The notes beneath the pieces were generated by a model, which worked only from the letters and a program-made list of their open reading frames with translations, made no database searches and had not been told where the DNA came from. Of a stretch of DNA of 64,000 bases, positions 81-54,426 are shown piece after piece. The first letter of the stretch is position 1, and each line of letters starts with the position of its first letter. The stretch spans positions 34,442-98,441 of the forward strand of contig MHFR01000060.1 in NCBI GenBank assembly GCA_001804285.1. The letters run 5' to 3'. A program made the position numbers and the translations under genes. Origin of the DNA: Candidatus Danuiimicrobium aquiferis. Its GTDB lineage: Bacteria; Omnitrophota; Omnitrophia; Omnitrophales; Danuiimicrobiaceae.

Positions 81-602
81 CTATGTGCAGAATAAATCTT
101 CGCCGATATATTTTTGAATGCGTTCAATCGTATCAAGCGAAACATTCTCCGTCCCCCGCTCTATCCTTGATACAAACTGTTGGGTCAATCCCGCTCCGCG
201 TGCAAGATCTGCTTGCGTGATCTTCTTTGAACGCCTCACTTCACGGACCCTTTTACCGATCCTCGCCCGAAGAGAATTTTGCACAACTTGCACGGCTGGG
301 CGCCGCAACGCAATCCCCTGCGATTTCAATTTTTCGCTGAGGTGACGGTAAATCTCCTGCCAAAACTGGATCCGGCCATAATCTCTTCGATCTTTGCGCA
401 TGCGCCGCTTAATATTCTGCCATTGCATGCAAAAGTCTTCCTTCTTGAGGTACCGGCTGAAAACTTCCTTCGGAACATTATGCCGTGCCAGTAAAAGCGA
501 TGCATAATGAAGATAGCTTGGATGTTCTGGATTTTTCAAAATCTTGCGAATCTCTTCATCTGTACGCCGGACATCCCATTCCCATACCCGCGATGTCGTC
601 AC
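81..602 (-). CDS. XRE-family helix-turn-helix protein (C-terminal Cro/C1-type HTH), putative regulator/antitoxin partner of the adjacent AbiEii-like gene
   Basis: C-terminal 'ITQADLARGAGLTQQFVSRIERGTENVSLDTIERI' is a canonical HTH_3 (XRE) motif. 4-nt start/stop overlap with the upstream nucleotidyltransferase gene (599..602). Confidence 0.6.
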   Translation of the reverse strand: MTTSRVWEWDVRRTDEEIRKILKNPEHPSYLHYASLLLARHNVPKEVFSRYLKKEDFCMQWQNIKRRMRKDRRDYGRIQFWQEIYRHLSEKLKSQGIALRRPAVQVVQNSLRARIGKRVREVRRSKKITQADLARGAGLTQQFVSRIERGTENVSLDTIERIQKYIGEDLFCT

Positions 603-1336
603 AAAATACCTCCGATCAGTTCGTCAATTTCGTGCTTGAAATGTCTTTCGATAACCACAAATTCAATCGGAGTTCTCGTTTTTAGCTCCGATAGCCCGAT
701 CTTCATCTCCGCACGGTTATATGTGTGATACCATCGGATCAACGCTTCCTTTTCGAGATCATCACAATAATCAAGCGCAAACAGAGATAAACGTTTATAA
801 GACGAAGAAAGCCGGTAAATATCGAAAAGGTCCTTGGCTTCTTGACGGCCTCCCAAAAACTGTTTACGCCCTACCCGATCCATCTCGGGCAACGTTCCGG
901 ATATCGCATGAATTTTCCTGAGATAAATATCCTCCAAAGACAAGATATCAACCCCATCAACCCGCTTTAAGGGGCGCAGAAGCTTTGTCACATCCTCTAC
1001 AAAATCAATTTTAAGTGATTCGTTTTTATTGATCATGAAGGCATAAATGGAAATCTTGGCAAATCCATCCTTGTGGCTTTGCTGGATCAATTTCATTTTT
1101 TTTCCTGTCGATCCCTCAATCAATTCAACCAACTCACGGATTTGGGCAGGTGAATAAGTTTGTGAGAAAAAATCCAAGTCATAGGAATCACGGTGCTGAA
1201 AATAGAATTTGGCTAAAGCCGTTCCCCCCGCGAGATAAAAGGACCCAGCGCGATCTTTAAGAGTTTGAAGGACAATATCTTGATATTTCAATATGGATTT
1301 CATCTGACTCACCTCTCTGGCTGCTAAATAATACAC
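599..1336 (-). CDS. AbiEii/AbiGii-like nucleotidyltransferase (DUF1814; type IV TA / abortive-infection toxin family)
   Basis: Motifs 'YLAGGTALAKFY' and 'HRDSYDLDFF' match the GGTAL and RxSxDxD nucleotidyltransferase motifs of AbiEii. About 245 aa. Translationally coupled to the downstream HTH gene. Confidence 0.6.
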   Translation of the reverse strand: MYYLAAREVSQMKSILKYQDIVLQTLKDRAGSFYLAGGTALAKFYFQHRDSYDLDFFSQTYSPAQIRELVELIEGSTGKKMKLIQQSHKDGFAKISIYAFMINKNESLKIDFVEDVTKLLRPLKRVDGVDILSLEDIYLRKIHAISGTLPEMDRVGRKQFLGGRQEAKDLFDIYRLSSSYKRLSLFALDYCDDLEKEALIRWYHTYNRAEMKIGLSELKTRTPIEFVVIERHFKHEIDELIGGIL

Positions 1337-7426: not shown

Positions 7427-7462
7427 TTCTTTCTCTGATTCTTTCTCTGATTTTTTCTCTAG
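7427..7462. repeat. Tandem 12-mer repeat (TTCTTTCTCTGA x3)
   Basis: Direct reading. Overlaps the 3' end of the acyltransferase gene. Confidence 0.8.
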
Positions 7463-8307
7463 TTTTCTTCACTCAAAGGTTGCACTGCTTCCTGCCGCCA
7501 TCGATTATGTCCCCATAGCGTCCAATCGGACGGGCGCTTCCGAATTTCATGTTCGAGAGTAGCCACATACTGCTGCGTATTTGCCGTTAAATCGGCCTGA
7601 AAATCACCGGTTTGGATCAGCGGAAATGGTTCGCCAAAAGCAAGAATAGAACGTTTGTCACGTTCGCGGTAATAAAAAGTCGGGATGATGGGTGTCCCAT
7701 ATTTTAAGGCAAGCATAGCCGGAAACCGGAATGTGGCCGCTTGACGACCGAAAAAATCCACATTCACAAAACCGGATTTAGCGTGGGCATCAAGCAGCAC
7801 CGCCACCACCTGATTTTCTTTCAGTAATTGAATCGTTTTTTTGACAGCACCTTTCCGGTCAATGTTCCTGAGCCCCGTAGATCCGCGAAGCCGTTTGATA
7901 TAATTATAAATAAACGGATTTTTCACGGGTTTTCCGATGGCATGGATCGGAATTCCTTTAGCGGCCGCAGCCACCCCCATCAATTCCCAATTTCCGAAAT
8001 GGGCCAAAACCAGAATGAGCCCCTTTTTCTCTTCCAAGGCTTTCCACACATATTCTTCTCCGTGCGTTTCAATAAATTTTCCGGAATTTTTCGCAATTTT
8101 GGGAATGTTGATAACCTCGAAAAAAAAGTCCACCATACCCGTCATGGACAACCGGCCGATCCTTCTGATTTCTGATTTTGATTTTCGCGGGAAAGCTGCC
8201 CGAAGATTGTTTATGGAAAAATTTCGGCGCCGGGTTCTAAGGAAAAGAAGAAATCCGATAACTTGCGCTATTTTTCTTTTGATAGAACTTGTCAAGAAGT
8301 TAAGCAT
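7459..8307 (-). CDS. Lipid A biosynthesis (Kdo)2-lipid IVA acyltransferase, LpxL/HtrB family
   Basis: 'LVLAHFGNWEL' motif (HxxNWE of the LpxL/LpxM family). About 282 aa. N-terminal membrane anchor. Confidence 0.75.
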   Translation of the reverse strand: MLNFLTSSIKRKIAQVIGFLLFLRTRRRNFSINNLRAAFPRKSKSEIRRIGRLSMTGMVDFFFEVINIPKIAKNSGKFIETHGEEYVWKALEEKKGLILVLAHFGNWELMGVAAAAKGIPIHAIGKPVKNPFIYNYIKRLRGSTGLRNIDRKGAVKKTIQLLKENQVVAVLLDAHAKSGFVNVDFFGRQAATFRFPAMLALKYGTPIIPTFYYRERDKRSILAFGEPFPLIQTGDFQADLTANTQQYVATLEHEIRKRPSDWTLWGHNRWRQEAVQPLSEEN

Positions 8308-9385: not shown

Positions 9386-9452
9386 TAGCATTTTGAAGTG
9401 ATTAACAAATCCCCCTCACCCCCACCCTCTCCCCGAGGGAGAGGGATAGCCC
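9386..9452. repeat. Family A palindromic repeat copy 2 (degenerate right arm)
   Basis: TAGCATTTTGAAGTG...CCCCCTCACCCCCACCCTCTCCCCGAGGGAGAGGGATAGCC. Same module as 1442-1540. Confidence 0.75.
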
Positions 9453-9491
9453 GCCAAAGGCAAGCCGCGCGAACAATCCAAGAAGGCTTGA

Positions 9492-13005: not shown

Positions 13006-13140
13006 AAATAAAATAGCTTCAAGTCCTTTTATGGTAACGGGTTGCGATTATTAAGATTTTGCGTGGTTTAGTATTATATGGTTGAACTTTACCTGTGTCA
13101 AGAGAATGAATTTTTCGCAGATTTCGAAAAAATTCCTCTT

Positions 13141-13225
13141 AGCCCGGACTTCTCATCGCTAATGAGAAATTTCGCTCGGAAGCTCTTCAAAAACTTTTTG
13201 AGCGGCTTCGGCTGGATTTTTGGCT
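13141..13225. repeat. Family B MITE-like element, partial copy B1 (terminal module AGCCCGGACTTCTCATCGCTAATGAGAAAT plus palindrome TCAAAAACTTTTTGA)
   Basis: The terminal inverted-repeat module is shared with copies at 36104, 40416, 44469, 48631 and 54101. It supplies the last codons and the stop (..ISH*) of pyrF. Confidence 0.75.
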
Positions 13226-13902
13226 TGAGTAATCGGCCTGCCGACAACGATGTAATCCGATCCCAATTCAAAGGCTTGCTTTGGCGTAACAATACGGGAC
13301 TGATCCTGTTTTTCCGACCATGCAGGACGGATACCGGGCGTGACGAGCATGAAGGATTTCCCCAATTCAGCTCTGATGGCCGCAACTTCCTTGGCCGAGG
13401 CAACAACCCCATCAAGCCCGGTTTTTTGAGCAAGCGTTGCGTATCGAAGAACTGTTTCTTCAACCGTACCCGGAATTCCGACTTCCCCGTTCATTTCTTC
13501 CTGATTTAAACTTGTAAGCACCGTAACGCCGATCAGTTTAGGCGCAGCAATATTATTCTTCCGGGCCTCTTCTGCCGAAGCGATACAAGCCTCCTGCAAC
13601 ATTCGCAGCCCACCTGAAATATGCACGTTAAACATAAACACACCCATCTTCGCCGCCATCCTTGCCGCACCCGCAACCGTATTCGGAATATCGTGAAATT
13701 TTAAATCAAGGAAAACCTGTGCGCCGGCTTCGTGAACCATGTCGACTACTTTGGGCCCGCAGGCCGTAAAAAGTTCTGCTCCGACTTTAAAAATTTTGAT
13801 TGAATCCTTCAGTTTCTTAACGAGCTGCTTGGCCTTCCGCAGCGTATCCGTATCCAGCGCCACAATGACCCGTTCTCTATAATTCATGCTTTCATTTTCC
13901 AT
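13159..13902 (-). CDS. pyrF: Orotidine 5'-phosphate decarboxylase
   Basis: 'VIVALDTDTL...FKVGAELF...LDLKFHDIPNTV' OMPdecase motifs. The C-terminal 'EISH*' is encoded by repeat B1. Confidence 0.9.
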   Translation of the reverse strand: MENESMNYRERVIVALDTDTLRKAKQLVKKLKDSIKIFKVGAELFTACGPKVVDMVHEAGAQVFLDLKFHDIPNTVAGAARMAAKMGVFMFNVHISGGLRMLQEACIASAEEARKNNIAAPKLIGVTVLTSLNQEEMNGEVGIPGTVEETVLRYATLAQKTGLDGVVASAKEVAAIRAELGKSFMLVTPGIRPAWSEKQDQSRIVTPKQAFELGSDYIVVGRPITQAKNPAEAAQKVFEELPSEISH

Positions 13903-20430: not shown

Positions 20431-20500
20431 GATTCTGAAGTTGACTATCGCCCCTCACCCCTGCCCTCTCCCCAAGGGAGAGGGTTAGGGTGAGGGGGAT
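20431..20500. repeat. Family A palindromic repeat copy 3 (CCCCTCACCCCTGCCCTCTCCCCAAGGGAGAGGGTTAGGGTGAGGGGG), inverted orientation relative to copy 1
   Basis: The flank GAAGTTGACTATCG matches the reverse complement of the copy-1 flank. Its translation gives the spurious 'PLPWGEGRGEGR' ORF. Confidence 0.8.
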
Positions 20501-23603: not shown

Positions 23604-24120
23604 CCACATGATGCTGACCTGTAAGCCGAGTTCTGTCCCCGCCACTTACGTGGCGGGTAATGATCATCTATCTAGGGCGCTGCTTGCGCAAACGCCTCAT
23701 GCGACCAACCCAAAACTTGGGAACGGGCCGTTCCCCCCGGCATCCGCAAAATCAGTGATTCTGCGCCGCCGAGTTCGTTTTCTATTCGGTCTTTCTCCAA
23801 GCGGGGTTTACCATGCGCCCTCCGTCGCCTTCGGGCCGGTGGTCTCTTAAACCGCCGTCACTCCCCATCATTAAATGAGAAATGACGACTGCACTCACTT
23901 TCTATTGATTACTCAATAAGAGTGACTGCCGCCGTTTCACCTTAACCCCCGATTGATGGGTTTGACACCATCAACAAAAGGCTGTTTATTTTCTGTGGCA
24001 CTTTCCATCTTTCACGGCTTTGGCCATGAAAGTCTCTGTGTTACAGAGCGCTCTTGCCCTGTGGAGCTCGGACTTTCCTCCTCCACGAATGGAAGCGATC
24101 ACCCGGTCAACATCATGTGG
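23604..24120 (-). ncRNA. rnpB: RNase P RNA (bacterial type A) with an enlarged internal helix (about 515 nt)
   Basis: Reverse complement contains GGAGGAGGAAAGTCCGAGCTCCACAGGGCA (P4/CR-I), GGTTAAGGTGAAACGGCGG, GGTAAACCCCGCTTGGAGAAAGACCGAATAG, and 3' CTAGATAGATGATCATTACCCGCCACG...ACAGAACTCGGCTTACAGGTCAGCATCATGTGG. P1 pairing is CACATGATGTTGACC/GGTCAGCATCATGTG. Confidence 0.9.
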
Positions 24121-35113: not shown

Positions 35114-36106
35114 ATGATAGCCCAAGGACAAAGGAAAGACAACCCGAAACAGCCGGTAAAAGCACTCTCCATAGGGTTCGTCATGGATCCGATGGAACAT
35201 ATTGATATTCAATATGATAGTTCGGTTTCGCTGATGATGGAGGCTGAAAAACGCGGCCACCGGATCTATTATTTCGAACCTCGGGATATTTACACTCAGA
35301 ATCATGAACTTCTGGGATGCGCGCGAAAAATTTCAATTCCGGCCCGAAAAACGGGCTTCCGGGTCCTTTCCACAGAACGGGTTTATCTAAAAAATTTGGA
35401 TGTTCTGTTCATTCGAAAAGATCCTCCGTTCGACTTATCTTACCTGTATCTCATGCAAATCCTGACCCTCATTGAAAAAGACGTTTTTGTCATTAATTCC
35501 GCACACGGAATCGAGCGGGCCAATGAAAAACTTTATATCCTTGAATTTCCCCGGTGGATTCCACCGACCACCGTCACCAATGATCCTTTGCGGATCGAAG
35601 AATTTCAAAAAAAAATAAAGTCCGATATCATTATAAAACCGCTTGATCAAAAAGGAGGTGCAGGAATTAAACTCCTTCCGTTCCGTTTGTCGAACAGCCG
35701 CCAAGCTTTGAACCGAATGACCCGGCACGGAACAAAATGGGTCATGGTTCAAAAATTCATTAAGGCGAGCCGCACAAAAGGCGATAAACGAATTTTACTT
35801 TTAAACGGAAATGTACTCGGGCAATTCCGCAGAATTCCGGTCCGTGGTGAATTCCGCGCTAATTTATCCCTGGGAGGAATGGAAGCGAAAGCAACTTTAA
35901 CCAACCGCGAACGGAAAATGGTTCGCGCAATTCGGCCCAAGCTGATTCGAGACGGGCTTTATTTCGTGGGGATTGATATTGTTGACGGTTATTTAATTGA
36001 AATTAATGTGACCAGTCCGGCCGGGCTTACCGTGCTTGAGGCACTCGACGGAAAGCGGCTTGAGCCGAAAGTGATTGATTTTGCTGAATCCCGGGTTTTG
36101 CATTAG
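35114..36106 (+). CDS. gshB: Glutathione synthetase (prokaryotic ATP-grasp type)
   Basis: Aligns along the E. coli GshB sequence: 'SIGFVMDPMEHIDIQYDSSVSLMMEAEKRGH', 'RKDPPFD', 'IIKPLDQKGGAGI', 'GDKRILLLNG', 'EINVTSP'. The stop TAG lies inside repeat B2. Confidence 0.85.
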   Translation: MIAQGQRKDNPKQPVKALSIGFVMDPMEHIDIQYDSSVSLMMEAEKRGHRIYYFEPRDIYTQNHELLGCARKISIPARKTGFRVLSTERVYLKNLDVLFIRKDPPFDLSYLYLMQILTLIEKDVFVINSAHGIERANEKLYILEFPRWIPPTTVTNDPLRIEEFQKKIKSDIIIKPLDQKGGAGIKLLPFRLSNSRQALNRMTRHGTKWVMVQKFIKASRTKGDKRILLLNGNVLGQFRRIPVRGEFRANLSLGGMEAKATLTNRERKMVRAIRPKLIRDGLYFVGIDIVDGYLIEINVTSPAGLTVLEALDGKRLEPKVIDFAESRVLH

Positions 36107-36308
36107 CCCGGATTTCGCATCTTTAATAAGAAATTCCGCTCATAAGAGCTGCGGTGCAAAGATGGTTTGTATCTTTGCGACGCAGGGCTTATCTTTTGCG
36201 CCCTTGTTAAATCAGGGCGCAAAACTTTGGGCCACCTGATTGCGCCCAAAGCGACTTTCTCGTCGATTCACGAAATCGATGAGAAAGTCGGGTTAGCCCG
36301 GATTTCTC
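36104..36308. repeat. Family B MITE-like element, full copy B2 (about 205 bp; five consecutive hairpin modules; termini TAGCCCGGATTTC...GAGAAAGTCGGGTTA)
   Basis: Sits between convergent gshB and ftsI. It provides the gshB stop codon, and the last ~13 codons plus stop of ftsI ('GEIRANPTFSSIS*'). Confidence 0.85.
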
Positions 36309-38028
36309 CGGTTCCCGCCGCGGCTTCGCCTTCCTTCACCGCAGGCGGCACATATCCTAAATACCATAAACTGCGTTCAATCACCGATTTGAAAACCGGC
36401 GCAGCCACGGTTCCACCGTAATAAAGCGGATGGGGATCATCAATTCCCACAAACATGGCAAGCTGGGGATCTTCCACCGGCGCAAATCCGATAAAACTGC
36501 CGATAAAATGCGAATGCGAATAAGTTCCATTCGGCTCAAGCTTCTGAGAAGTCCCTGTTTTTCCGCCGGCACGGATATCAGTCATATATGCACCTTTTCC
36601 GGTTCCCTCGCTCACCACTCGTTCCAAAATCCCTTTGACCGTTTCAGCCACAGCCGGCGAAACGATCGGACCCCGGAGTTCCGGCTCCCGATGTGACAAT
36701 ACGACGCCTTTTGAATCCTTGATTTCTTTCAATAAGTAGGGTTTCACCAAATATCCGCCATTTGCAATCACGCTCACCGCGCGCACCATTTGAAGCGCAG
36801 TTGCAGCGACTTCCTGGCCATATGGAATAGACGTAATCGAAAATTTTGACCATCTATCCAACGGCCGGAAAATGCCGACCACTTCTCCGGGAAAATCAAT
36901 ACCTGTTTTATCGCCAAAACCGAATTTCTTGACATACTCGTAAAGTTTTTTATCTCCAAGTTTCATTGCAATTTTAACCGTCCCGATATTGCTTGATTTA
37001 ATGAGAACCATCGGCACGTCTAAAATTCCGTAAGGATGCACATCATGAATCGTTCGGTTAGGACGGGCACGCCAAAACCCTTGTTCGCAATTAAATGTGT
37101 CTGTTAACTGAATCGCTTTTTCCTGAAGCGCACCCGTCACCGTTACAATTTTAAAAACAGAACCCGGCTCAAAGATATCCGTCACGGGCCGGTTGCGGCG
37201 GCTTGCCGTATCGGATTTCCCGCGAAAATTCGGATCGAATGTCGGCCGCGATGCCATGGCAAGAATCTCACCCGTCTTCGGGTTCATCACGACTGCAATC
37301 GCAGCTTTCGCTTTCCATTGTAAAAACGCCTCATTCAAAGCCTGCTCTGTGTAAAATTGAATATGCTTATCAATGGTCAGAATCAAATCAGCGCCATCAA
37401 CCGCCGGAATTAATTTTTGCTCCATTGAAACGATTTCCCGGCCAAGCGCATCCCGTTTCGTATAGCGATATCCCGTCCTTCCGGATAGTTCGCGTTCATA
37501 AAGCATTTCGAGGCCGTCCACTCCTTTGTTATCAATATCACAGAAACCGAGGATATTCGAAAGCATCTCACTATGAGGATAAAACCGTTTACTTTCGTAA
37601 GCCACTCCGAGCACCGGATTCTCCAAACTCATGATTTCTTCTGCTTCTTTCACAGCCGTTCTGCGTTTAAGCCATACAAATGATTTATCGCGCAAAAGCC
37701 GGTCCGATAAATATTTCTGATCGAGCCCGAGAATCCGGCTGAGAATGGCTGCCAATTTTTTTATGTTGGATTTTGAAATCAACCTGGGCACGGCATAAAT
37801 AGAGGGGGATCTCAAGTTGGTAGCAAGCACTTGCATGCGATGATCATAAATAACGCCACGCTCTGGAGGAATTTCAATCACAAGATTGTGCTGTCGTTCG
37901 GCAAAATCAGTCAACATTTCCTGATTCCGAACCGTCAACCGGAAAAGCTGGTAAAAAATCAGAAGGAATAGAATCACAACGGAAATATACAACAGTAAAA
38001 TGCGTCTTTTAAAACTTTTCGCGAGCAT
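36268..38028 (-). CDS. ftsI: Peptidoglycan D,D-transpeptidase FtsI / PBP3-class penicillin-binding protein
   Basis: N-terminal TM, PBP dimerisation domain, transpeptidase motifs ('SVFK' SxxK, 'SSN', 'KTGT'). Located after ftsL in the dcw cluster. Confidence 0.85.
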   Translation of the reverse strand: MLAKSFKRRILLLYISVVILFLLIFYQLFRLTVRNQEMLTDFAERQHNLVIEIPPERGVIYDHRMQVLATNLRSPSIYAVPRLISKSNIKKLAAILSRILGLDQKYLSDRLLRDKSFVWLKRRTAVKEAEEIMSLENPVLGVAYESKRFYPHSEMLSNILGFCDIDNKGVDGLEMLYERELSGRTGYRYTKRDALGREIVSMEQKLIPAVDGADLILTIDKHIQFYTEQALNEAFLQWKAKAAIAVVMNPKTGEILAMASRPTFDPNFRGKSDTASRRNRPVTDIFEPGSVFKIVTVTGALQEKAIQLTDTFNCEQGFWRARPNRTIHDVHPYGILDVPMVLIKSSNIGTVKIAMKLGDKKLYEYVKKFGFGDKTGIDFPGEVVGIFRPLDRWSKFSITSIPYGQEVAATALQMVRAVSVIANGGYLVKPYLLKEIKDSKGVVLSHREPELRGPIVSPAVAETVKGILERVVSEGTGKGAYMTDIRAGGKTGTSQKLEPNGTYSHSHFIGSFIGFAPVEDPQLAMFVGIDDPHPLYYGGTVAAPVFKSVIERSLWYLGYVPPAVKEGEAAAGTGEIRANPTFSSIS

Positions 38029-40238: not shown

Positions 40239-40415
40239 TACGTCACGAAGTATACCGAATTGTGGAACTCCTTGTCAAGAAATAAGATGGAGAAAACTCA
40301 AAACATACAAGACACAAAATATGGTAAATAAACGAGCCGCCAACACAATATAATGTGGCTTATTTTAAAAGAGGGATAGTTCCTTAGAATAAAAAATGGG
40401 ATGCTGCTGAAACTT

Positions 40416-40609
40416 TAGCCCGGATTTCTCATCGCTAATGAGAAATTCCGCTCGTAAGAGCTGCGGTGCAAAGAGGTTATTCATCTTTGCGACACAGGGC
40501 TTATCTTTTGCGCCCTGATTTAACAAGGGCGCAAAACTTTGGGTGCAACTTATTGCGCCCAAAGCGACCTTCTCCATGATTCAAAAAATCGATGAGAAGG
40601 TCGGGTTAG
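40416..40609. repeat. Family B MITE-like element, full copy B3 (about 194 bp)
   Basis: TAGCCCGGATTTCTCATCGCTAATGAGAAATTCCG...GATGAGAAGGTCGGGTTA, collinear with B2. Generates the spurious ORF 40365..40577. Confidence 0.85.
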
Positions 40610-40622
40610 GACTTTTTTTGAA

Positions 40623-41324
40623 TTATTCGCAGTATAAAATGCGGGAGCAATTTTCGCAGAAAACGACTTTTTCCTTCATTTTGATTTCATTGATGATTTG
40701 CGGACGGATTGTCATTTGGCATTCATTACAAACTTCACCTGTCACTTCAACAAGCGCAACTCCTCTTTTCTTCACAACAATTCTATCGTAGACAGAAGCA
40801 ATTTCCGGATCAACCTGCTTGATTTTTTCATTTCGCTGTTTTGTAAGGACTTCGCTTTGACCTTCAATTGCTTTGGCCTTTTCTTCAAACGTTTTAACCT
40901 TTTGATGTTGCTCAATTTCTGTTGTCTGAAATTTCTTTTTTTGTTCCTCTAATTTTTTCTGAACAGCCTGAACGTCATCCATAAATTGGATAATTTGTTC
41001 TTCGAGCAAGGAATTATCGGCCTTTAAGGAAGCAATTTCATCCTGCAGCGACTTATATTCTTTATTGGTCTTTACCTGGCTGAGTTGCGCATCATATTTC
41101 CTGACATTTTCTTCTTTGCCGGCAAGTTCAACTTCTTTCCCTTTTTGTTTAAGCTGAAGCTTTTTCAACTCATCCTGAAGATTCGTCAAAACATTTTTCT
41201 GTTCAACAATAAAACAGTTAATTGCTTCGATTTGCTCGGGAATAGTATTCTTTTCTTCTTCAAGCGTATAGATCTGCTTATCCCATTCCTGGATTTCTTT
41301 TAAGATTTTCATATCTGGCATCAT
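40623..41324 (-). CDS. Coiled-coil protein with C-terminal C4 zinc-ribbon (COG1579 / zf-RING_7 family)
   Basis: Long heptad-rich N-terminus. C-terminus 'CNECQMTIRPQ...VFCENCSRILY' is a CxxC...CxxC ribbon. Confidence 0.65.
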   Translation of the reverse strand: MMPDMKILKEIQEWDKQIYTLEEEKNTIPEQIEAINCFIVEQKNVLTNLQDELKKLQLKQKGKEVELAGKEENVRKYDAQLSQVKTNKEYKSLQDEIASLKADNSLLEEQIIQFMDDVQAVQKKLEEQKKKFQTTEIEQHQKVKTFEEKAKAIEGQSEVLTKQRNEKIKQVDPEIASVYDRIVVKKRGVALVEVTGEVCNECQMTIRPQIINEIKMKEKVVFCENCSRILYCE

Positions 41325-44468: not shown

Positions 44469-44560
44469 TGGTTTAGCTCGGATTTCTCATTGCTAATCCG
44501 GTTTTCTCATCGTTTTTTTCAATCGATGATAAGGGCGCGTGTTAGATGAGAAACTATCTA
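44469..44560. repeat. Family B element, degenerate partial copy B4
   Basis: TTAGCTCGGATTTCTCATTGCTAATCCGGTTTTCTCATCG...GATGAGAAACT. TIR-like modules only. Confidence 0.55.
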
Positions 44561-48614: not shown

Positions 48615-48630
48615 CTTTCACTTCTCCTCT

Positions 48631-48669
48631 AACCCGACTTTCTCATTAACGATGAGAAGTCCGGGCTAA
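48631..48669. repeat. Family B minimal element B5: the two terminal inverted repeats joined (TAACCCGACTTTCTCATTAACGATGAGAAGTCCGGGCTAA)
   Basis: Perfect hairpin between proA and proB. Supplies the proB stop codon. Equivalent to an 'empty' or solo-TIR form of family B. Confidence 0.75.
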
Positions 48670-54100: not shown

Positions 54101-54426
54101 CTAACCCGACTTTCTCATCGATTTTATGAATCGACGAGAAAGTCGCTTTGGGCGCAATCAGTTGCGTCCGTGGCTTCCCCCCGGGCAAGCCCGGGGCACC
54201 TTTCAAAATCTGGCCTCGCTTGGAATTTTCTCTTTCCATGCTCGGCACGCCCTTCGGGCGCCATTCACCCCCGGGCAAGCCCGGGGAGCTCAAAGCGGCG
54301 TAAAGTTTTGCGCCCTTATTAAATCAGAGCGCAAAAGATAAGCCCTGCGGCGCAAAGACGCAAACAGCTTTGCACCGCAGCTCTTACGAGCGGAATTTCT
54401 TATTAACAATAAGAAATCCGGGCTAA
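54101..54426. repeat. Family B MITE-like element, composite copy B6 (about 326 bp, reverse orientation, with an extra ~140-bp insert carrying two CCCCGGGCAAGCCCGGGG hairpins)
   Basis: CTAACCCGACTTTCTCATCGATTTTATGAATCGACGAGAAAGTCG...GCGGAATTTCTTATTAACAATAAGAAATCCGGGCTAA matches the reverse complement of B2 end to end. Sits between the uvrD 3' end and the M48 peptidase start. Confidence 0.85.

Follow-up and report, generated by a model that had tools for sequence, protein, structure and literature searches.

What kind of element sits at one gene boundary after another in this stretch of Candidatus Danuiimicrobium aquiferis DNA, which enzyme put it there and whether the host keeps it for a purpose are the questions raised by a palindromic repeat, here called family B, that recurs at six loci in 64,000 nucleotides (nt) of contig MHFR01000060.1 (the whole stretch that was analysed is referred to as the window). 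The window is a housekeeping region that holds the pyrimidine operon, the division and cell-wall (dcw) cluster, proBA and the glycine-cleavage genes, and its exact gshB product was found in contigs of groundwater metagenomes only. An earlier note, made from the sequence alone, had read the repeat as a transposable element of the miniature inverted-repeat kind (MITE), of IS630/Tc1 descent, and its picture of a miniature, dispersed, non-coding element bounded by terminal inverted repeats and accompanied by deletion derivatives held up. The IS630/Tc1 parentage did not, as the ends are those of IS1380-family insertion sequences (ISs). Family B has ends identical to those of IS1380 elements, is absent from syntenic relatives, has no coding capacity and lacks RNA-type covariation, and we consider it likely that it is a MITE of the non-autonomous type with its origin in the IS1380 family, a DDE transposase of which presumably moves it in trans.

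Copies and anatomy of family B

Direct reading of the sequence, a repeat search and nhmmer all place six copies of one family where the earlier note had put them: three full, two truncated or internally deleted and one consisting of ends only. Refined coordinates, which include the TTAG flanks, are as follows.

36103-36296, plus strand: full copy, made of TTAG, a 186-nt core with five hairpins and TTAG (nhmmer E 2e-66), between the convergent gshB and penicillin-binding protein (PBP)/FtsI-like genes; the TAG of its left flank is the gshB stop
36297-36309, plus strand: solo left-end fragment CCCGGATTTCTCC, abutting the 36103-36296 copy
40415-40609, plus strand: full copy (nhmmer E 8.5e-68), between the stop of a Zn-ribbon gene (40623-41324, minus strand) and the mraZ promoter
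54101-54426, minus strand: full copy with a nested repeat, between a uvrD-like helicase gene and an M48 peptidase gene, 16 nt upstream of the start codon of the latter
54170-54301, minus strand: nested repeat of ~132 nt with two CCCCGGGCTTGCCCGGGG hairpins, inserted between hairpins 3 and 4 of the preceding copy
13139-13185, plus strand: 3'-truncated copy with TTAG, left end and hairpin 1 only (nhmmer E 1.8e-8)
44473-44545, plus strand: internally deleted, degenerate copy of 73 nt with TTAG at both flanks, in which the left end and hairpin-1 loop are fused to a degenerate hairpin-5-like palindrome
48629-48669, minus strand: minimal copy of 41 nt with left end, 5-nt loop, right end and TTAG flank, between proB and proA; the TAG of the flank is the proB stop

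The last of these had been described as two ends joined, which is what it is. The first full copy had been given the range 36104-36308; the copy is there, but it ends at 36296, and the earlier range reached 36308 because the solo left-end fragment abuts it, the two having the TTAG at 36293-36296 in common.

Alignment of the copies bore out their shared termini and gave the invariant unit TTAG-CCCGGAYTTCTCAT ... ATGAGAARGTCGGG-TTAG (hyphens mark the boundary between flank and element); every complete copy has the terminal inverted repeat CCCGGAYTTCTCAT at one end and CCCGACYTTCTCAT at the other. The end motif TAGCCCGGAYTTCTCAT has 12 matches in the window at three mismatches or fewer, all of them within the six loci, against 0.37 expected, and none of 100 shuffles reached 12. 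In the repeat search of the window the three long copies form direct and inverted repeat families of 82-95% identity, and an nhmmer profile built from ten full copies found the same six window loci and no others, the same set that the repeat search recovers. Copies also exist beyond the window, at ten or more further loci at unrelated sites on other contigs of the lineage, including those of sibling metagenome-assembled genomes (MAGs). Full copies measure 193-195 nt (326 nt with the nested insert), and the ten that were profiled are 78-96% identical, with a mean of 88%. No Pfam domain was found in the open reading frames (ORFs) inside family B copies. A length below ~600 bp, no coding capacity, terminal inverted repeats and multiple dispersed copies are among the properties by which a MITE is recognised, and family B has these.

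The five-hairpin interior that had been proposed is also what the full copies fold into. Hairpins 1 and 5 each consist of one end followed directly by its own inverted copy, with three more palindromes between them, and the predicted RNA fold of a full copy is five hairpins closed by a terminal stem (minimum free energy -92.2 kcal/mol, z = -9.1; opposite strand -88.4 kcal/mol, z = -9.15). The arms of the hairpins are repeats of one another, and either slippage or recombination among these could account both for the deletion derivatives and for a loop inversion seen in one copy; we propose that the 41-nt and 73-nt derivatives and the inversion would have arisen in this way. Those two variants are deletions between repeated hairpin arms. 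The stems of hairpin 3 are identical in 36194-36224 and 40506-40536, and the 11-nt loop stands exactly reverse-complemented in the 36103 copy, in that copy alone against all nine other full copies; this inversion is a DNA-level flip between palindrome arms.

Ends shared with IS1380-family insertion sequences

The terminus TTAG-CCCGGATTTCTCAT of the MITE equals the ends of uncultured IS1380 members at 18 of 18 bases, flank included. A scan of metagenomes for TTAGCCCGGAYTTCTCAT returned at least 115 loci; of the 115 matches listed, 110 have T for Y, and this recurrence of the 18-nt terminus is not chance. Many of the matches lie at contig ends and, among those listed, only three hold family B; in the rest, a variety of other sequences end in this 18-mer. 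Among the same matches, at least 12 termini have an inverted partner 1.57-2.40 kb away and so form complete elements; each of the ten such elements examined encloses one long ORF, a full-length IS1380-type transposase. Three of these ORFs were scanned against Pfam (PF13701, E 5e-147 to 2e-156) and two against NCBIfam (NF033539, 'IS1380 family transposase', with a cut-off of 180 bits and scores of 388-403 bits, E ~1e-116 to 1e-120), and tblastn places an IS1380-type transposase at 26 or more of the loci listed. Three transposases that were compared share 36-51% mutual identity, yet the terminus TTAGCCCGGATTTCTCAT, an 18-mer, is identical in the elements that encode them. Autonomous IS1380 elements with the ends of family B occur in other metagenomic organisms.

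The same scan yielded at least 22 termini, among the matches listed, whose partner lies less than 700 nt away, giving MITE-like elements of 52-274 nt; the ORFs next to these short elements, where read, resemble ordinary host genes. TTAGCCCGGATTTCTCAT accordingly bounds at least 22 gene-less elements of 52-274 nt in unrelated organisms (metagenome loci L003-L117), and because one terminus delimits so many short gene-less elements, IS1380-derived MITEs seem common in the environmental metagenomes scanned.

Named members of the family, annotated on plasmids, have related ends. The IS1380 of Pseudomonas putida pKF715A reads CTAG-CCCGCATTTCTCACAG...CTGTGAGAAATGCGGG-CTAG and that of Bradyrhizobium CB82 reads CTAG-CCCGCATTTTTCACAG...GTGAGAAATGCGGG-CTAG, which gives the shared pattern CTAG-CCCGCATTT[C/T]TCACAG...GTGAGAAATGCGGG-CTAG, and IS1380A reads TCGA-CGCGGAAATCTCACAG...GTGTGAGAAATCCGCG-TCGA, beginning CGCGGA and closing TCCGCG. 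Of 14 positions, the MITE end has 12 in common with IS1380A at its right end and likewise 12 with the P. putida IS, and the end consensus C[C/G]CG[G/C]ATTTCTCA is common to IS1380A and other annotated IS1380 members. Ends identical to those of IS1380 elements argue that the parent family is IS1380, not IS630/Tc1.

That the copies are insertions is indicated by two relatives (L130 and L131, ~60% amino-acid identity) that keep the same gene order over ~21 kb. The element is absent from both by nhmmer and is missing at all five sites that they cover, and the spacing of the genes differs as listed here.

uvrD-M48 gap: 32 nt in the relatives, 361 nt in the window
proB-proA gap: 4 nt in the relatives, 51 nt in the window
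PBP and gshB genes: 80 nt of overlap in the relatives, the element between the two in the window

The PBP of the window is also 15-19 residues shorter than that of the relatives. Taking ends and insertions together, we propose that in this uncultured Omnitrophota bacterium (RIFCSPLOWO2_12_FULL_44_17 lineage) an IS1380-family transposase would act in trans on family B, that insertion would occur at TTAG-type sites with duplication of 4 bp of target, and that the copies would be maintained selfishly and not by host selection.

Flanks, counter-evidence and rival explanations

Several observations weigh against descent from, and mobilisation by, an IS1380 element. The relatives offer no base-precise empty site, their intergenic DNA being too divergent to align, so duplication of TTAG on insertion is something that we infer only. 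All population contigs with an identical mraZ show the same filled or repeat-broken locus: in those that span the interval between the Zn-ribbon gene and mraZ the gap is 421 nt, just as in the window, and two others start close to the repeat, ~250 nt upstream of mraZ. In the population contigs sampled, this mraZ-proximal copy is fixed. At 78-96% identity the copies have diverged from one another by 4-22%, which means that family B may be old and inactive. Similarity to any one IS is not convincing beyond the 14-nt end, with at most ~8 further bases (CGATTTTG) in common with one IS group. With three transposases as queries, tblastn found no IS1380 transposase in the window or in ~98 kb of further lineage sequence, which leaves a cognate partner in this host conjectural. 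In line with the earlier note's statement that the window has no cognate transposase, a Pfam/NCBIfam scan of 50 large window ORFs found neither a transposase nor a REP-associated tyrosine transposase (RAYT), and the nine remaining large ORFs correspond to non-transposase genes in the syntenic relatives. Finally, the flank keeps one orientation relative to the element: all 11 complete copies have TTAG and none has CTAA. Random orientation would give this with a chance of ~2^-10, and it is not what a plain duplication of 4 bp, at a target that is not palindromic and in random orientation, would lead one to expect.

The flanks themselves are best judged from the Omnitrophota copies, which were found by internal similarity and are hence unbiased for flanks. 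On the left, all 16 flanks are TTAG; on the right, 11 of 13 are TTAG and the other 2 are TTAA, and no repeat continues outside these four bases. The earlier note had placed TA or TTA next to the ends; TA does lie inside every flank, but what is conserved is a unit of 4 bp (TTAG, CTAG or TTAA). By the convention used for IS1380, the flanks of family B would be a 4-bp direct repeat, judging from their sequence. Named IS1380 members have the 4-bp flanks CTAG/CTAG and TCGA/TCGA, and IS1247 is listed with a 5-bp direct repeat (PMC3281130). Among the matches listed, 13 of 34 two-ended metagenome elements carry TTAG on one side and CTAG on the other, a hybrid that ascertainment may explain, since the scan pattern required TTAG at one end. 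Patterns suited to tabulating both flanks of two-ended elements are CTAGCCCGGATTTCTCAT and TTAACCCGGATTTCTCAT. A scan of viral contigs for TANCCCGGATTTCTCAT gave one match, too few for flank statistics, and neither internal nor end-plus-hairpin patterns matched in the genome-contig collection, in which the lineage is apparently either not represented or masked.

A variant of the flank interpretation, for which we see some grounds while holding it unlikely, is that the four flanking bases may travel with the element, as in piggyBac, and may not be copied from the target. Two findings sit badly with a plain fill-in duplication, namely the single orientation of TTAG in the complete Omnitrophota copies and the TTAG/CTAG elements. 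When piggyBac is excised, the TTAA on either side goes with the transposon in the form of 5' overhangs. Among prokaryotes, the outgroup of piggyBac is formed by IS1380 transposases (PMC10813416), and this link makes the flank behaviour worth an experiment: if IS1380 does use a piggyBac-like hairpin and overhang, heteroduplex flanks, part donor and part target, would give TTAG/CTAG hybrids, and MITEs of the family B type would be natural reporters of piggyBac-like chemistry in bacteria.

We think it very unlikely that the copies have been exapted, and for that reason kept, to serve as functional RNAs, whether as terminators, as stabilisers of mRNA 3' ends or as small RNAs. The position of copies at 3' ends or between operon genes, a T-rich tract after hairpin 2 in the forward orientation, the insertion upstream of mraZ, fixed in every population contig sampled, and the precedent of Coxiella small RNAs from QMITE1 and QMITE2 (PMC5896051) would fit such a role. 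Against these stand an RNAalifold consensus of 71 pairs with a compensatory change in only 2 of 71 and a covariation term of +0.88, and strands that fold equally (-92 and -88 kcal/mol), as expected for DNA palindromes; with almost no covariation and both strands folding alike, an RNA role is unsupported. The orientation of copies relative to neighbouring genes, including the upstream gene, is inconsistent. Terminator-like sites occur at the level of shuffled sequence (5 against 5.9 expected; 2 against 1.2), as do promoter-like sites, and the element has no Rfam match at gathering or E <= 1 thresholds. We accordingly rejected a terminator on the chance-level scan, and an RNA family on the missing Rfam match and the absence of covariation; the terminator, mRNA-stabiliser and small-RNA roles once suggested for the repeat have no positive evidence. 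Overall, the findings speak for selfish DNA palindromes whose effects on neighbouring genes are collateral, and not for a selected RNA function.

A different origin, as palindromes of the REP (repetitive extragenic palindrome) or BIME (bacterial interspersed mosaic element) kind spread by a RAYT of IS200/IS605 type, or as modular DNA or RNA structural sites kept by the host, is highly improbable in our assessment. Modular palindromes in intergenic positions, the minimal single-hairpin form at 48629-48669, the inverted hairpin-3 loop of one copy and the very strong folding of both strands are all reminiscent of such elements, and the nested second repeat, which made no duplication, shows that they exist in this genome. 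However, the terminal inverted repeats of family B are clear and match IS1380 ends exactly, the 4-bp flank is constant on either side, the copies are single and dispersed with no clustered alternating arrays, and the window ORFs scanned include no RAYT or Y1 transposase.

Least credible of all is a Stowaway-like MITE derived from IS630/Tc1-mariner that duplicates TA, with TAGCCCGGATTTCTCAT as the terminus at issue: TA is the only dinucleotide common to every flank variant (TTAG, CTAG and TTAA) and, with the ends drawn as GCCCGG...CCGGGC, TA duplication would also explain the TTAG/CTAG elements (13 of 34 among the matches listed), but every complete same-ended element with an ORF that was examined encodes an IS1380-family transposase, the end consensus recurs in IS1380A and other annotated IS1380 members, and the long ORFs read beside termini look like host genes or other transposases (one IS66-like) and none looks IS630-like, no dedicated IS630 search having been made.

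Neighbouring genes, annotation and known systems

With TTAG at their borders, family B copies have consequences for the genes around them, and they lie at gene boundaries as had been noticed before. TTAG contains the stop codon TAG, which would be why copies often abut or overlap gene 3' ends; a TAG-containing target would be a simple reason for elements to end on stop codons. The earlier note credited the copies with supplying the stops of gshB, proB and pyrF. This holds for pyrF (13159-13902, minus strand), whose stop at 13159-13161 lies in the hairpin-1 loop and whose last ~8 codons come from the element. The stops of gshB (TAG, 36104-36106) and proB (48666-48668) lie within the TTAG flank, which may be pre-existing target, so that the element may have landed on these stops and not supplied them. 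For the PBP/FtsI-like gene (36268-38028, minus strand) the claim of a 13-residue C-terminal tail plus stop was accurate, as the last ~13 codons and the stop come from the element together with the solo end fragment, which encodes part of that tail. Only pyrF and the PBP gene truly read into element sequence. Gene 3' ends have in this way been remodelled: the PBP/FtsI tail has been replaced and the gshB/PBP overlap split.

Copies also leave traces in annotation. The spurious ORFs that had been pointed out exist, and the one at 40365-40577 (minus strand) is the GenBank hypothetical protein A3G33_11495. A protein search with an element-internal ORF returned a match at 100% identity and eight other element-encoded ORFs, all of them lacking a Pfam domain and the named ones stemming from sibling Omnitrophica MAGs. 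In GenBank and other public annotations of these MAGs and of related metagenome contigs, no fewer than nine 'hypothetical proteins' of 48-92 amino acids are translations of family B (among them A3G33_11495, A3G33_01210, A3E74_07960 and A3E74_03505). Family B thus explains several hypothetical proteins of the Rifle Omnitrophica MAGs as repeat artefacts, and it explains contig breaks at these loci.

Upstream of mraZ lies a near-consensus promoter (TTGACA-18-TATACT, 40249-40278, minus strand) followed by repeated GTGG motifs; both are conserved in L130 and L131, and the MITE sits directly upstream of the promoter.

The insert of the 54101 copy had been described as ~140 bp with two hairpins; it is present, but it measures ~132 nt (54170-54301) and is a separate, independent element. 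It also occurs by itself, nearly identical, at ~7435-7567 of a different contig (L126), on which it has been annotated as a 69-amino-acid gene. The nested repeat made no target duplication of the surrounding bases and resembles an IS200/IS605-type (PATE-like) or other element that makes none. Two family B copies elsewhere (L126, 505-799; L125, 9566-9857) hold a different insert of ~100 nt (GTTTGACTTTCCATAGATAATTTTATAAGGGAGTCAAAAC...) between hairpins 2 and 3. With other small repeats inside several of its copies, family B is a recurrent landing site for them. A second palindromic family (CCCCTCACCCTAACCCTCTCCC...GGGAGAGGGTTAGGGTGAGGGG), unrelated to family B, has three copies in the window, in both orientations and at 70-89% identity (1471-1517, 9412-9458 and 20451-20497).

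Two further features of the window were recorded. A class A RNase P RNA (23606-24114, minus strand) is 509 nt long against a 367-position model, with a ~100-nt expansion in one helix and a ~36-nt insertion, neither of which matches family B. At the window edge, an AbiEii-type nucleotidyltransferase toxin gene (81-1336, minus strand) stands beside a gene for an HTH_3 protein, the two being a probable type IV toxin-antitoxin pair.

Set beside known systems, family B resembles REP and BIME sequences with their RAYT in its modular extragenic palindromes and single-hairpin minimal units, and differs from them in having true terminal inverted repeats and a constant 4-bp flank, with no RAYT among the window ORFs scanned. 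The layout of piggyBac is TTAA-CCC...GGG-TTAA. Family B, with a tetranucleotide, CCC...GGG and a tetranucleotide, mirrors that layout of piggyBac and its MITEs, but its host is bacterial and its tetranucleotide is TTAG or CTAG in place of TTAA.

Small size, bounding terminal inverted repeats, multiple strongly folding copies between genes or across their 3' ends, spurious small ORFs and internal-deletion variants are properties known for Correia/NEMIS in Neisseria, RUP and BOX in pneumococcus, and ERIC. Family B has the same properties in common with QMITE1 and QMITE2 of Coxiella (PMC5896051). The ORFs of QMITE1 constitute the peptide family DUF1658 (PMC5896051); those of family B have no Pfam domain, so none matches DUF1658. 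Identity with the Coxiella elements was rejected on the Omnitrophota host and the lack of DUF1658-like peptides, and family B belongs neither to the QMITEs nor to Correia, BOX, RUP or ERIC, a statement made for the last four without direct sequence comparison. From known bacterial MITEs it differs in its parent IS family and in its host phylum, Omnitrophota. No paper attributing a MITE to IS1380 was found in the literature covered, which is incomplete, and a full-text search for the end sequence found no paper; within that literature, family B is a MITE whose parent family was not previously linked to MITEs.

The closest comparison is with the IS1380-family ISs themselves (IS1380A of Acetobacter pasteurianus, IS1247 and ISEcp1; NF033539, PF13701), whose ends, like those of family B, have CC as their first bases and a 4-bp repeat on either side. 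Family B differs from them in having no transposase gene, in its length of ~190 nt against 1.6-2.4 kb, in an interior made of palindromes only and in a flank that is the non-palindromic TTAG in place of CTAG or TCGA.

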